Positions 11,399 to 32,103 of a stretch of 64,000 nt of DNA are shown piece after piece. Source of the stretch: an uncultured Mycoplasmatota bacterium (lineage in GTDB: Bacteria > Bacillota_I > Bacilli_A > RF39 > UBA660); contig UQXO01000002.1 in assembly GCA_900545005.1 (NCBI GenBank), forward strand, positions 65,901-129,900, given 5' to 3'. Each line of letters begins with the position of its first letter. Positions within the stretch are counted from its first letter, which is position 1. The notes under the pieces are model-generated. The model saw nothing but the letters and a program-made list of their open reading frames with translations, made no database searches and was not told the origin of the DNA. The translations under genes and the position numbers were made by a program.

Positions 11399-12052
11399 TT
11401 AATTAGTACTATCATCAGTTGTATTATCCGCTACTTGGGAAATAAATATCTTTATTTCTAATTTAATACTAGGCTTATCTGGATACTGATTCTTATAATT
11501 ATAAGCTAAATGTCCCCATTTCGTATCAAGGGCATCATCTCCTGATTCAAAAGGCCAATTAACATCAATAGTATATTTAGCTTGTCCAATCTCGGCATCT
11601 AAAACGGAACTAGAAATATTAAAGTTAAACTTAAAAGGATAATCATTCTTTAACTTATTAATTAGTTCTTCACTAGTTATTGTATTTTCCGGGACTGGTT
11701 CATTATGATCATTTAGCCCTTCTTTGGTACTATACTTAGTACCCATAATATCAGCACTTAATATTTCATAAGTTACTACGGCCCCCACTTCACTTTTATT
11801 ATAAGCATTTAACTCATAATGATAATCTTTCATCCCTGGATACATGCTTTCTATATTTACATCAACATAATCAATGATGGGACTATCTCCCGATTGAAAT
11901 AAGACATCCCAAGCTCTAACATGAGCATCCATCGTATTATTTACTTTGGTCGCGTAAATAAACCAAGCAAAGGAATTGCTACCTATTAGAATAATTAATA
12001 GGACAATTTGATGAGGTTTTACTACTTTCTTTAATTTTTCCCAAGTATTCAT
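11399..12052 (-). CDS. TasA/camelysin-like secreted protein (217 aa), paralogue family member 7
   Basis: Signal anchor followed by SFAWF, a central MYPGMKDYHYELNAYNKSEV strand pair, and the C-terminal motif VNWPFESGDD...IKLEIKIFISQ. A SipW gene lies immediately upstream. Confidence 0.55.
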   Translation of the reverse strand: MNTWEKLKKVVKPHQIVLLIILIGSNSFAWFIYATKVNNTMDAHVRAWDVLFQSGDSPIIDYVDVNIESMYPGMKDYHYELNAYNKSEVGAVVTYEILSADIMGTKYSTKEGLNDHNEPVPENTITSEELINKLKNDYPFKFNFNISSSVLDAEIGQAKYTIDVNWPFESGDDALDTKWGHLAYNYKNQYPDKPSIKLEIKIFISQVADNTTDDSTN

Positions 12053-12060
12053 ATAATCCC

Positions 12061-12585
12061 TTATTCTTCTTTTTCTTTTAAAACAAAGGCCCTTAAAAAT
12101 TCATAAGAGAAGGCCACTCCTACACTCATAAAGATTAGATAATATATAATAACATTTTGCATTAAATGACTAATAAAACTTAATATAACTGTTTTATAAA
12201 TAACTTTCCCATAAATACTACTAGCTTCGATTTCGGGATCTTCAATTTGATTAGCTATTCCTTTGGTAACAAAATAATTCTTATTATCTTTCTCTTCTTT
12301 CTTTATAATTCGGTGGGTTACTACAATTCCTCTTAATTCTTGTCTTTCCCCAAGATAAGTAATATCATCACCGACATTTAGACTCTTAGCATCCACTTTT
12401 TTACTTATTATGATGTCTCCTACTTTATAATCGGGAGCCATACTTTCAGATACTATTGTAAACATGTAATAACCCCCAATATTTATTTTATTATTAGAGA
12501 ATTTCTGAACAATAACTACTATTAATACACATAATAGGGCTACTGTTAAGATACCCTTTAATACTCCGAATATTTTTTTTATCAT
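12061..12585 (-). CDS. sipW: Signal peptidase I, SipW (archaeal/ER S26B) type
   Basis: N-terminal TM, SESMAP (catalytic Ser), VTHRII (catalytic His), and a C-terminal TM. Confidence 0.8.
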   Translation of the reverse strand: MIKKIFGVLKGILTVALLCVLIVVIVQKFSNNKINIGGYYMFTIVSESMAPDYKVGDIIISKKVDAKSLNVGDDITYLGERQELRGIVVTHRIIKKEEKDNKNYFVTKGIANQIEDPEIEASSIYGKVIYKTVILSFISHLMQNVIIYYLIFMSVGVAFSYEFLRAFVLKEKEE

Positions 12586-12593
12586 TTTTCCTC

Positions 12594-13706
12594 CTAAAAC
12601 TTAAAGTTCTCAATTTTTTCTAAGTAGTTATCAATACTTTTCAAAAAGACATTTTGAATTTCACTTAAACTAGCTTGTTTTTTTAGCTTGGTAATAGCTA
12701 TTTTATCCCCAATTTTTTCTTTTAAAGTACTAAGAGGCATATCGACATTTAACTCGACTATTCTTTCGATTAGATTATCAGTTATTTCTTCAATATTCTT
12801 CTTGTAGTCTTCTGTTGTTTTATCTTTACTTAGAGTATCAAGGGCTAAATAGTTTAAATAGAATGTATTATTTAAATAATCTTTTATAATACCATTTTCT
12901 TCATAGTTTTTATGTTCTTTCGTAATTTTAGTATCATTAGCAACATGACTTTGAAGAAAATCCCAGAGTTTCATCGCATACTGGAAATTAGTATTTTTTA
13001 ATATGACATTAGTCTTCTTAATAGGGGGTATTACTCTAGCAACATGTTTTTTTCTTAAATCTTTATATACATCAGTATTTTGAAGCATGGTAATATTTTG
13101 TTCTAATTTTTCTATGCGTTCTTCAATAGAAAGAGAGGAATCAGTTGAATTATTATCAAGACTCGCAATTAAAGAGGAGTCAAGAGCTACATTAACATTA
13201 ATTCTTTCTTTACCTAAATTACATTTTCCTTGATATTCTAGTCTTTTTATATCTTTAACTTGCGAGGTCGTTAAAGTTTCTTTTTTCTTTAATTCCACAT
13301 AGTTTCGCATATTTTCAATTAAAGTATAAATAAGACGATTTTCATAAGTATCATAACTTTCATCTTTATTAATATTTAAAATCTTAGAGGGTTTAACATC
13401 GCCATTATCTTCAATCTTTTGAATAAAATTAGTATGTTTAGATAGATGTCTAATACTTTCGACTGTTACACGACGAGCTAATTCAATTTTTACTATTTCT
13501 TCTTCATTAACAATAAAACGATTAGGATTTCTTAAGATATTATCTAAGTATCTAATAGTATCTTCCATTAAATCTAACCATTCATAATCAACAACCACTT
13601 TTTCATAAGAAGTATTAAGATTCAGATTAGAGCGAATATTACTATTAAAATTTTGAACTTTGTTTTTATTATTTTCATATAATTTTATTATACTTAAATC
13701 TTCCAT
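12594..13706 (-). CDS. McrC N-terminal/DUF2357-like protein with no recognisable nuclease domain (370 aa)
   Basis: ..NPNRFIVNEEEIVKIELARRV..KDESYDTYENRLIYTLIENM.. resembles the (D/T)xENR region of McrC/DUF2357 proteins. It lies 8 nt downstream of the McrB-like gene. The C-terminal half is coiled-coil-like, and no PD-(D/E)xK motif is seen by eye. Confidence 0.4.
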   Translation of the reverse strand: MEDLSIIKLYENNKNKVQNFNSNIRSNLNLNTSYEKVVVDYEWLDLMEDTIRYLDNILRNPNRFIVNEEEIVKIELARRVTVESIRHLSKHTNFIQKIEDNGDVKPSKILNINKDESYDTYENRLIYTLIENMRNYVELKKKETLTTSQVKDIKRLEYQGKCNLGKERINVNVALDSSLIASLDNNSTDSSLSIEERIEKLEQNITMLQNTDVYKDLRKKHVARVIPPIKKTNVILKNTNFQYAMKLWDFLQSHVANDTKITKEHKNYEENGIIKDYLNNTFYLNYLALDTLSKDKTTEDYKKNIEEITDNLIERIVELNVDMPLSTLKEKIGDKIAITKLKKQASLSEIQNVFLKSIDNYLEKIENFKF

Positions 13707-13714
13707 AATTCACC

Positions 13715-31342: not shown

Positions 31343-31390
31343 ATATGAACTACCTCTATCATATACTCCTTAATTGTATTATATTTTTGG

Positions 31391-31437
31391 AAATTTTGCA
31401 ATTACTTTGTCAACTTTTGTCTTTTTTTGCAAAATTT
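31391..31437. promoter_or_regulatory. 11-bp perfect inverted repeat AAATTTTGCAA-25nt-TTGCAAAATTT in the divergent control region (candidate operator)
   Basis: Read directly. The arms flank a TTGACA hexamer on the minus strand, upstream of a TATAAT. Confidence 0.4.
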
Positions 31438-31465
31438 ATCTTCCTAATTTTTAGTAAATATCGTT

Positions 31466-31494
31466 TTGACTTTTAAGATAAATTTGTTTATAAT
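31466..31494 (+). promoter_or_regulatory. Consensus sigma-A promoter TTGACT-17-TATAAT for 31525-32103
   Basis: Read directly; exact 17-nt spacer, about 30 nt upstream of the RBS AGGAG. Confidence 0.7.
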
Positions 31495-31524
31495 TTTATT
31501 AAGAATAGAGTTAGGAGTTTCCTT

Positions 31525-32103
31525 ATGAAGTTAAAAAAAGTGTATTTGTTACTAGCTTTAACCTGCTTACTCTTGTTGGTTAGTCTTATCCAAAGTACTT
31601 ACGCAAAGTATGTTTCTAAAGCTGAAGTCGGCTCTAATTTTGCGATTGCAGCTTGGAATTTCAAGGTAAATGAGCAAGATATTAATAATAATAATGATTT
31701 AAGTAATGTAATAGTTCCTGTCTTTGAAAATAATCCTAATATTAAAGATAATGTTCTAGCTCCAACAGCAGAAGGATATTTTGATATTAATATCGATCAT
31801 AGTAGCGTTGATGTTAGTTTTACTGAAAAAATAAAATTAGGACTTAGTGATAATAATACCGTTAGTGATTTAAAAATTACTGGTTATACCCTAAACAACA
31901 GTTCTTTAAAAGAATTTAATGGTGATGTAATTAGTACAGATTGCCTTTTAAGTGATGAGAATAAGATTAATAAATATCGTTTTTATGTAACCTGGATTGA
32001 CGATGAGACTGAATCTATGAAAAATAGTGATGATACGGAAGCTACTAAAAATGGTACTGCCAGTATAAAAGTAGATTTATCATTTATTCAAAAAGCCCAA
32101 TAG
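31525..32103 (+). CDS. TasA/camelysin-like secreted protein (192 aa), paralogue family member 3, divergently transcribed
   Basis: Signal peptide followed by STYAKYVSKAEVGSNFAIAAWNFKV. C-terminal motif VTWIDDE...IKVDLSFIQ. Confidence 0.55.
   Translation: MKLKKVYLLLALTCLLLLVSLIQSTYAKYVSKAEVGSNFAIAAWNFKVNEQDINNNNDLSNVIVPVFENNPNIKDNVLAPTAEGYFDINIDHSSVDVSFTEKIKLGLSDNNTVSDLKITGYTLNNSSLKEFNGDVISTDCLLSDENKINKYRFYVTWIDDETESMKNSDDTEATKNGTASIKVDLSFIQKAQ

Follow-up and report, generated by a model that had tools for sequence, protein, structure and literature searches.

In the tapA-sipW-tasA operon of B. subtilis, as in sipW-calY of B. cereus and sipW-bsaA-bsaB-bsaC of C. perfringens, the signal peptidase gene sipW lies beside genes for small exported proteins that carry a SipW motif. 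Quite separately, Bell et al. (eLife 2024, PMC11090510) gave the name CoCoPALM to a group of NxD-type McrB GTPases that have an FtsB-like transmembrane/coiled-coil fusion and are associated with a signal peptidase; the group is treated there in a single paragraph, which proposes a role in pilus assembly and defers the analysis to a later publication. Here we describe a gene cluster that resembles both of these systems, found in a 64,000-nucleotide stretch of contig UQXO01000002.1 from an uncultured Mycoplasmatota bacterium. This stretch, referred to below as the window, has a G+C content of about 27% all along. The cluster consists of 15 open reading frames (g01 to g15) running on the minus strand from 31342 to 11399, together with a divergent gene, g16, on the plus strand.

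Judged by the sequences of its proteins, the locus is an elaborated member of CoCoPALM. Three of the four defining features are present: the NxD signature, a DUF2357 partner devoid of nuclease residues and the association with a signal peptidase. With respect to the fourth, the FtsB-like tether, g12 is alike in architecture (a transmembrane segment plus a charged helix), but the Pfam homology was not reproduced. The architecture is therefore one that has been named but is uncharacterised, and not an undescribed class as the first, sequence-only reading of this DNA had supposed. In the full-text literature the CoCoPALM name was found only in Bell et al. and its preprint, nothing beyond Bell et al. 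was found to link McrB, pilus, signal peptidase, GTPase and TasA, and the text supplements of the CoCoNuT paper contain no CoCoPALM details. Two apparent leads were discarded: a paper on a "conserved pilin of TANB77" (PMC11680825) describes a Tad-type pilus, and the mention of McrB in the BsaA paper (PMC11580942) is only an E. coli strain genotype.

In our opinion the locus is probably a SipW-dependent surface-filament/adhesin system in which a GTPase of McrBC origin, tethered to the membrane, is coupled to assembly or deployment. A bolder proposal is that Gram-positive bacteria have a class of surface-filament machine not recognised before, for which an McrBC GTPase was exapted as the motor; this is possible but we regard it as doubtful. 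The evidence comes both from the individual components and from their association in other genomes. One genome per species was scanned and at least 538 of these encode a relative of g12; all of the synteny and co-occurrence counts given below refer to the best 80 of them.

The GTPase and the cytoplasmic proteins encoded in the cluster are the following.

13715 to 15238, minus strand: g12, a 507-residue membrane-tethered McrB-type GTPase of the NxD clade, with a conserved N-terminus, a transmembrane segment (residues 56-74), a charged helical segment and an AAA+ domain.
12594 to 13706, minus strand: g13, a 370-residue McrC homologue with a helical C-terminal half; match to Pfam DUF2357 (McrC N-terminal domain) at 2.7e-11.
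15251 to 16228, minus strand: g11, a 325-residue cytoplasmic protein without a transmembrane segment, always directly upstream of the GTPase.
19759 to 21267, minus strand: g05, a 502-residue cytoplasmic accessory protein without a transmembrane segment or a family match, present in 22 of the 80 loci.
21264 to 21374, minus strand: g04, a 36-residue cytoplasmic protein without a transmembrane segment, always directly upstream of g05.

The first two had already been read as a membrane-anchored McrB-like AAA+ protein and an McrC-N-like protein, and both identifications were upheld. A PDB sequence search aligned g12 with E. coli McrB (E 0.003), including the Walker A, Walker B and signature motifs. 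Its signature, GTIN-N-D-D-ST, agrees with the family motif GT[AI]N-x-D-[DE]-ST, which was derived from the representatives of at least 440 residues among the 150 best 50%-identity cluster representatives; according to Bell et al. (PMC11090510), an "NxD followed by D or E" marks the CoCoNuT/CoCoPALM branch. When the window protein was aligned with homologues from 80 species (81 sequences), 112 of the 167 positions of the AAA+ core proved to be invariant in at least 97% of the sequences. Basic residues come after the transmembrane segment, from which a cytoplasmic GTPase domain is predicted, and are followed by a well-conserved charged helical stretch (residues 81-128). No Asp or Glu past residue 122 of g13 is invariant among 41 sequences, and the protein matched no nuclease family, in a PDB profile search or otherwise. 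The same holds for the locus as a whole, since searches of Pfam, NCBIfam, PHROGs and PADLOC with its 16 proteins detected no nuclease, HEPN, helicase or toxin domain. The g11 family profile found nothing in the PDB; in two loci where g11 was not detected (L075 and L079), a protein of 344-351 residues occupies its position. The small g04 lies directly 5' of the g05 homologue in at least nine loci, as determined by tblastn.

There are three SipW-type genes, each followed by one or two genes for small exported proteins.

12061 to 12585, minus strand: g14, a 174-residue catalytic SipW; 84.2 bits against TIGR02228, SipW model also matched.
17775 to 18596, minus strand: g08, a 273-residue accessory catalytic SipW; 68.4 bits against TIGR02228, SipW model also matched.
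19162 to 19704, minus strand: g06, a 180-residue SipW-like protein, classed as a pseudo-peptidase; 33.4 bits against TIGR02228.

The number and arrangement of these genes are as originally noted, but only two of the three products can be expected to be active. The cut-off of TIGR02228 (archaeal-type signal peptidase I) is 51.85 bits. The Ser-Met and the His of the active site are invariant in the families of both g14 (79 sequences aligned) and g08 (46 sequences aligned), the latter having in addition a K/E-rich cytoplasmic tail of about 120 residues; from its sequence and distribution, g14 is the core peptidase of the system. In g06, by contrast, the catalytic Ser column never contains Ser in 71 sequences, DNDEMEP stands at the position of the SGSMEP of g08 and g14, and the window protein has no His at the position of the THR motif of these two. 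Since g06 scores below the cut-off and lacks the catalytic Ser and His, as do all 70 of its homologues, and yet is kept in 68 of the 80 loci, it is by sequence a conserved pseudo-peptidase. In minimal loci g10 is always directly downstream of g06; the signal motif conserved in the g10 family, T-f-G-R-Y, has Gly where Ala is otherwise usual.

Six of the exported proteins have a basic N-region and a hydrophobic segment followed by a conserved [ST][YF][AG]x[YF] motif: TYAWF in g02, TYGLF in g07, TYARY in g09, TFARF in g10, SFAWF in g15 and TYAKY in g16. By sequence this is the SipW-cognate signal type, a name that one annotation source attaches to homologues of g02. Apart from g02, which is considered below, these proteins are the following.

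31525 to 32103, plus strand: g16, a divergently encoded 192-residue exported protein with a predicted TasA/AbpA-type fold, its signal motif kept in 74 homologues.
18608 to 19165, minus strand: g07, a TasA-type exported protein of 185 residues, paralogous to g16 and belonging to an optional g07-g08-g09 block; present in 41 of the 80 loci.
17174 to 17773, minus strand: g09, a 199-residue accessory exported protein of TasA type, linked to g07 by hhalign.
16239 to 17162, minus strand: g10, a 307-residue exported protein with a weak link to the TasA group.
11399 to 12052, minus strand: g15, a TasA-type exported protein of 217 residues, joined to g16 by hhalign.

The AlphaFold2 model of g16 (pLDDT, predicted local distance difference test: 80.5) has the TasA fibre as its top Foldseek match (8aur; E 2.5e-4, probability 1.0, TM-score only 0.34), with AbpA, a bundling pilin of archaea (7ueg; E 2.7e-3), in second place and the chaperone-usher pilins FimG, PapG and FimA after it; about 55 residues after the signal helix are of low confidence in this monomer model. 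The hhalign comparison of the families was repeated on the mature parts, with the signal peptides trimmed off, and it then joined g16 with g07 (99.9% probability), g15 with g16 (91%, 146 columns), g07 with g09 (81.7%, 133 columns) and g15 with g07 (75%), whereas the g09-g10 pair, which reached 94% with the signal peptide, was left with 27% without it. From these profiles and the model, the TasA/AbpA-fold group would consist of g07, g09, g15 and g16, and perhaps g10. The original idea of seven TasA-like paralogues thus survives for four proteins, perhaps five. That all seven small proteins form one paralogous family, as the untrimmed profiles had suggested by linking nearly all of them, was rejected: most of the hhalign signal came from the signal peptides, and g01 and g02 separate after trimming. 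Hidden Markov model searches of the giant and the other window proteins with the family profiles gave only noise, except for the pairs g16/g07 and g01/g02, and Pfam, NCBIfam, PHROGs and PADLOC returned nothing for g01, g02, g03, g05, g07, g09, g10, g11, g15 and g16.

The three remaining proteins of the cluster are all encoded at its upstream end.

30611 to 31342, minus strand: g01, a 243-residue membrane-anchored protein (transmembrane residues 27-45) without the [ST][YF][AG]x[YF] motif.
29615 to 30607, minus strand: g02, a 330-residue exported beta-sandwich protein, its TYAWF signal motif 95-100% conserved in homologues.
21383 to 29542, minus strand: g03, a 2719-residue giant with an N-terminal transmembrane anchor (residues 15-33) and a putative central solenoid.

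More than 3149 homologues of g02 were found, none with a Pfam domain, and PDB sequence searches with g02 alone and with its family profile gave nothing useful. Its AlphaFold2 model (pLDDT 86.8) is a larger beta-sandwich than that of g16. Beyond its best match, considered below, the Foldseek matches are mainly beta-sandwiches of carbohydrate-binding modules and viral capsids, and TasA is not among the 50 matches listed; the structural comparison that had been suggested for all of these proteins hence leads to TasA and AbpA for g16 but not to TasA for g02. The g01 and g02 families are joined by hhalign (91.7% over 36 C-terminal columns), with W-x-E-G-x-D-x-x-C in both. By sequence, g02 stands for a beta-sandwich family of its own that is very widespread, with g01 as a relative anchored in the membrane. 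From sequence and model we consider g02 the candidate major subunit, and g01, from its sequence, a candidate anchor or nucleator. Archaeal threads have intersubunit isopeptide bonds. In g02 there is an invariant N39 just past the predicted cleavage site and an invariant K67 28 residues further on, a pair reminiscent of the intermolecular isopeptide lock that Asn and Lys form in BsaA (PMC11580942). The ATG listed for g01 (31324 to 31342, minus strand) lies 24 nucleotides from the only strong AAGGAG, and a second ATG (Met7), six codons downstream, comes after a GGTGA at a more usual spacing; given this spacing and an N-terminus that is not conserved among homologues, Met7 may be the true start.

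The giant g03 had initially been described as a beta-helix protein. The transmembrane anchor is present and residues 1209-1557 comprise 15 consecutive repeats of 24-26 residues with the motif [FY]GG[GSN]N; these repeats are consistent with a solenoid or beta-helix. The protein has no Pfam, NCBIfam, PHROG or PDB sequence match and from its layout it is a candidate adhesin.

The association of these genes in other genomes, which the sequence-only reading had set as a test, goes far beyond chance. All of the best 80 genomes are uncultured gut or rumen metagenome-assembled genomes, labelled as Bacilli, Tenericutes, Mollicutes, Mycoplasmatota, Erysipelotrichaceae, Clostridia, Clostridium sp. and others (for example, Muribaculaceae and Lachnospiraceae); two of them, with 1.26 and 1.55 Mb, are complete chromosomes. 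Both g12 and g13 are found in all 80 loci, g14 in 79 (each time directly after g13), g15 in 74, g10 in 72, g11 in 71 and g06 in 68. The counts for g16 (67), g02 (56), g01 (49) and g03 (48) are limited by the 10-kb flank that was inspected, and these four genes are present wherever that flank extends to them. The usual order is g06-(g07-g08-g09)-g10-g11-g12-g13-g14-g15, then g16 on the opposite strand and after it g01-g02-(g04-g05)-g03; the homologues of g03 thus come after g02 in other genomes as well. The window departs from this order in having the second module upstream of the first. Without the optional g07-g08-g09 block and g04-g05, a core of 11 genes is left. The flanking chromosomal genes vary between genomes.

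Conservation of the sequences is very uneven. The median identity to the window protein is 72% for g12, 52% for g01, 47% for g13, 46% for g03 and 26-40% for the others. Two of the genomes have the gene for the essential GTPase Der within the stretch that was inspected; in these, g12 is 73% identical as against 64% and 58% for Der. Such conservation of g12 relative to the other parts is the pattern expected of a motor with fast-evolving pilins and not that of an arms-race defence. Distant full-length homologues of g12, with 34-38% identity, are still found in compact loci. One of these (L084, on a contig of only 4.2 kb) has g01-like, g02-like and SipW-like genes beside the GTPase; the other (L087) has the same set, its g02-like protein with an ATYAWF motif, and also an McrC-N-like gene, so that an McrC-N homologue was detected in one of these two distant loci. 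Since the g01/g02 pair and SipW are kept in both, it is these that, on comparative grounds, constantly accompany the GTPase. Neither the giant nor the TasA-fold proteins were seen in L084 and L087, and they may be lineage-specific elaborations. For several further distant relatives of the GTPase the contig was too short to tell anything about the neighbourhood.

Two other loci with distant homologues may be mentioned here. In L086 (2 to 4341) a g12 homologue of 40% identity has g11-like (upstream) and g13-like neighbours, and directly upstream of the locus there are genes of phage type, for DUF859, a holin and a probable lysin. In L088 (6988 to 11503) there are two tandem g12-like GTPases, of 449 and 500 residues, with a 556-residue McrC-N homologue between them; no SipW was detected within 12 kb.

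Four sites outside the coding sequences bear on the transcription of the cluster.

31466 to 31494, plus strand: promoter-like TTGACT-17-TATAAT upstream of g16, with 11 of 12 consensus positions.
29560 to 29608, minus strand: pair of hairpins 3' of g02, the second followed by U6; folding free energy -18.3 kcal/mol, z -6.0.
19729 to 19757, minus strand: promoter-like TTGAAT-17(TG)-TATAAT with an extended -10, in the 54-nucleotide g05-g06 gap, at the boundary of module B.
11363 to 11396: perfect AT-rich inverted repeat with a 15-bp stem and A and T runs at its sides; folding free energy -14.3 kcal/mol, z -5.9.

Much of the layout given by the sequence-only reading stands, namely the strand and span of the cluster, junctions between g01 and g15 that range from a 4-nucleotide overlap to about 70 nucleotides (72 as measured here), the divergent gene behind a near-consensus, promoter-like site and the perfect repeat that closes the cluster, which from its sequence is a bidirectional terminator-like element. 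The 36-codon frame had been counted in addition to 15 others, whereas there are 15 in all. Nor does the cluster appear to be one 20-kb operon. The hairpin pair is a candidate intrinsic-terminator-like attenuator in the gap between g02 and the giant g03, and because of this hairpin with its U6 and of the promoter-like site between g05 and g06, the cluster probably comprises several transcription units, probably three, and not a single 20-kb transcript. Both of these internal boundaries are module breakpoints that are rearranged in other genomes. No Rfam riboswitch or leader was detected, either in the whole window at gathering thresholds or in the divergent promoter region at relaxed thresholds.

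How might such a system operate? Sec would insert the precursors, and g14 would cleave them, joined by g08 in the loci that have it. The major subunit g02 would then polymerise on the uncleaved anchor g01, probably by donor-strand complementation, with the TasA-fold proteins as minor, tip or adaptor subunits and the giant solenoid g03 as a displayed adhesin. The pseudo-peptidase g06 could keep one subunit uncleaved at the membrane in a holding or platform role, g10 being its invariant neighbour. On the cytoplasmic face, a hexamer of g12 plugged by g13, together with g11, would hydrolyse GTP and so drive or gate a membrane step, be it the hand-over of precursors to the peptidase, the extraction of subunits or the extrusion of the fibre; it would play a part like the one that the ATPase has in type IV filament systems. 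In C. perfringens, type IV pilus (T4P) proteins help oligomers of the TasA-like BsaA to be exported (PMC11580942), which is a precedent for fibre export assisted by machinery. If the GTPase were indeed exapted as a motor, the tethered McrB hexamer, the nuclease-less McrC plug, SipW and the pseudo-peptidase platform would assemble or extrude donor-strand fibres bearing the giant adhesin, and a large clade of uncultured gut Bacillota with reduced genomes would have this machine, more constrained than Der, as part of its core equipment. An elaborate multi-subunit fibre or adhesin apparatus had been proposed from the outset; its SipW-processed subunits, giant and NTPase (nucleoside triphosphatase) pair are all there, while the energised assembly, that is to say the mechanism by which the GTPase is coupled to it, is something that we infer.

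Several considerations weigh against a GTPase-coupled filament. All of the hosts are uncultured and the filament is known here from genes alone. The structural matches of g16 are modest, with TM-scores of 0.3-0.4, and the best Foldseek match of g02 is a weak one, to the Sulfolobus thread subunit 7pnb (E 0.011, probability 0.6). Pfam Peptidase_M73 (TasA/camelysin) is matched by none of the seven window proteins and by 0 of 145 homologues, which also counted against the seven TasA-like paralogues, and a PDB sequence search with the g16/g07 profile recovered no TasA chain. There is no informative family match for g04, g05 and g11, and in Pfam the tether of g12 does not match FtsB/DivIC even at E up to 10. 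Moreover, TasA, BsaA, AbpA and thread fibres polymerise without an NTPase (PMC9674648, PMC9245690, PMC11580942), so that an energy requirement is left unexplained. These same fibres speak for a different role of the cytoplasmic proteins: the fibre or coat might form spontaneously by donor-strand exchange and g12, g13 and g11 be a regulator or quality control and not a motor, acting perhaps as a GTP-dependent checkpoint, as a device that clears away remnants of signal peptides or stalled precursors, or as an anchoring-release switch. Such a role would suit a GTPase domain predicted to be cytoplasmic when polymerisation is extracellular, as well as the fact that McrC-type partners normally regulate hydrolysis by McrB (Bell et al., PMC11090510). 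This is a serious rival, but it seems to us rather unlikely, since the GTPase is more constrained than Der and is kept even in the minimal loci L084 and L087, which suggests an indispensable mechanical or catalytic role.

The GTPase also nests in a clade that otherwise consists of defence systems. In addition to its NxD signature, g12 matches the PADLOC candidate-defence model PDC-M26A (7e-33), and a 756-residue relative, P0401, with about 40% identity in the GTPase domain only, is found in a typical CoCoNuT context, its neighbours being vWA, kinase, PP2C and UPF1-like helicase genes; this context confirms that g12 arose within the CoCoNuT clade. Furthermore, one distant homologue of g12 adjoins phage lysis genes. 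The whole locus could accordingly be imagined as a conflict or defence system of the CoCoNuT/McrBC lineage, in which the GTPase pair would detect invading nucleic acid or phages that attack a surface receptor, and the exported proteins would serve as decoys, sensors or effectors. This we consider improbable. In none of the 16 proteins was a nuclease, HEPN, toxin or helicase domain detected, g13 is without conserved acidic residues at the nuclease position, the DNA-binding N-domain of McrB is replaced by a membrane tether, and about 70% of the coding capacity of the locus is devoted to exported structural protein. Across 80 species the genes keep a fixed order, and Der evolves faster than the GTPase, the opposite of what is seen with typical defence genes. 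There is, finally, the explanation by which the sequence-only reading would have fallen, a chance juxtaposition in which an McrBC-like defence pair was inserted in a sipW/tasA-type operon beside an unrelated giant adhesin gene. Defence genes do often insert into other loci and the known TasA loci have no NTPases, but in essentially all 80 loci g12-g13 have g10-g11 on one side and g14-g15 on the other, while the chromosomal flanks differ between genomes, and the association with g01/g02 and SipW persists in L084 and L087 at 34-38% GTPase identity. Coincidence is thus contradicted by the synteny and is hardly credible. The filament/adhesin system coupled to a GTPase remains the reading that we prefer.

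Several genes of the window outside the cluster deserve mention.

32617 to 33759, minus strand: membrane-bound GGDEF diguanylate cyclase (7.4e-31), adjoining g16.
33839 to 35304, minus strand: LiaF-like membrane protein (LiaF-TM, 2e-15) paired with a DUF4097 "toastrack" protein.
36688 to 37608 and 37617 to 38417, minus strand: unusually long proteins of 306 and 266 residues that match Pfam N_methyl, the N-terminal methylation motif of type IV pilins (3.7e-7 and 9.6e-9), beside der/engA.
40164 to 42632, minus strand: 822-residue protein without a Pfam match, beside the following.
43072 to 48858, minus strand: 1928-residue protein with a ResIII/DEAD helicase core (1.6e-20).

The cyclase is probably not part of the system, since the same adjacency is seen in only one of the 80 other loci. 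The two N_methyl proteins may, by analogy, be relevant to it because of the help that T4P proteins give to the export of BsaA oligomers in C. perfringens (PMC11580942). The LiaF-like/DUF4097 pair suggests a cell-envelope stress module and a host that has a cell wall, and the 822- and 1928-residue proteins may form a defence or DNA-processing module.

Should it be true that the GTPase powers the assembly of the fibre or acts as its gate, we would be dealing with a new kind of filament system, driven by NTP, and with a clear instance in which a defence enzyme was recruited for the biogenesis of the cell surface. The hosts are abundant, uncultivated gut and rumen bacteria, and since about 20 kb is spent on the locus in genomes that, where complete, are only 1.26-1.55 Mb, it is likely to be central to the way in which they attach, be it to a host, to food particles or to other microbes. 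For reconstitution, L087 with its compact set of about five genes offers a practical starting point. With the class already named in the literature, the value of the present analysis is that of a parts list with testable hypotheses and not of a first discovery; what it adds is a description at the level of components, along with corrections concerning the peptidases, the "seven paralogues" and the operon structure.

How then does the locus compare with the systems already known? The likeness to the TasA-type operons lies, besides the SipW arrangement, in the TasA fibre being the best structural match of the g16 model and in g01, a membrane-anchored accessory protein, being reminiscent of TapA. 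Those operons, however, have three or four genes, as against 11 core genes here, with no Peptidase_M73 signature; they are also unlike the present locus with its pseudo-peptidase, GTPase pair, cytoplasmic partners and 2719-residue protein, and with a candidate major subunit, g02, that is not detectably of TasA type. Among the archaeal donor-strand filaments, the AbpA (7ueg) bundling pili are the second match of g16 and the Sulfolobus threads (Saci_0406, 7pnb) the best match of g02, both of them weak (TM-scores 0.2-0.4). The subunits of these filaments are cut by an archaeal-type signal peptidase I, the family of SipW, but here the hosts are bacterial. We know of no NTPase for the archaeal bundling pili and threads.

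The type IV filaments (T4P, Tad, archaellum) are alike in their logic, with a dedicated peptidase, a cytoplasmic and highly conserved NTPase on the membrane, and one major and several minor subunits that evolve rapidly, but there is no homology: the NTPase is of PilB/VirB11 type there and an McrB-type AAA+ protein here, the peptidase is the aspartic PilD there and the Ser/His SipW here, and the signal is cut before the hydrophobic segment there and after it here. With McrBC and CoCoNuT the locus shares an AAA+ GTPase with the Walker A/B and signature motifs, about 40% identical to the GTPase domain of CoCoNuT CnuB, and a DUF2357 partner directly downstream. In contrast to these systems, it has a membrane tether in place of the DNA/RNA-binding N-domain and is set among exported structural proteins, and no PD-(D/E)xK or HEPN nuclease and no helicase was found at the locus. 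In canonical McrBC the PD-(D/E)xK nuclease belongs to McrC, and in CoCoNuT systems a CnuB with a long coiled coil goes together with HEPN or other nucleases and often with a UPF1-like helicase. CoCoPALM is the group to which the locus conforms, and it goes beyond the description of Bell et al. in its TasA-fold subunits, the g01/g02 family, the pseudo-peptidase, the giant solenoid, the proteins g11, g05 and g04, the division into two modules and the extreme conservation of the GTPase.

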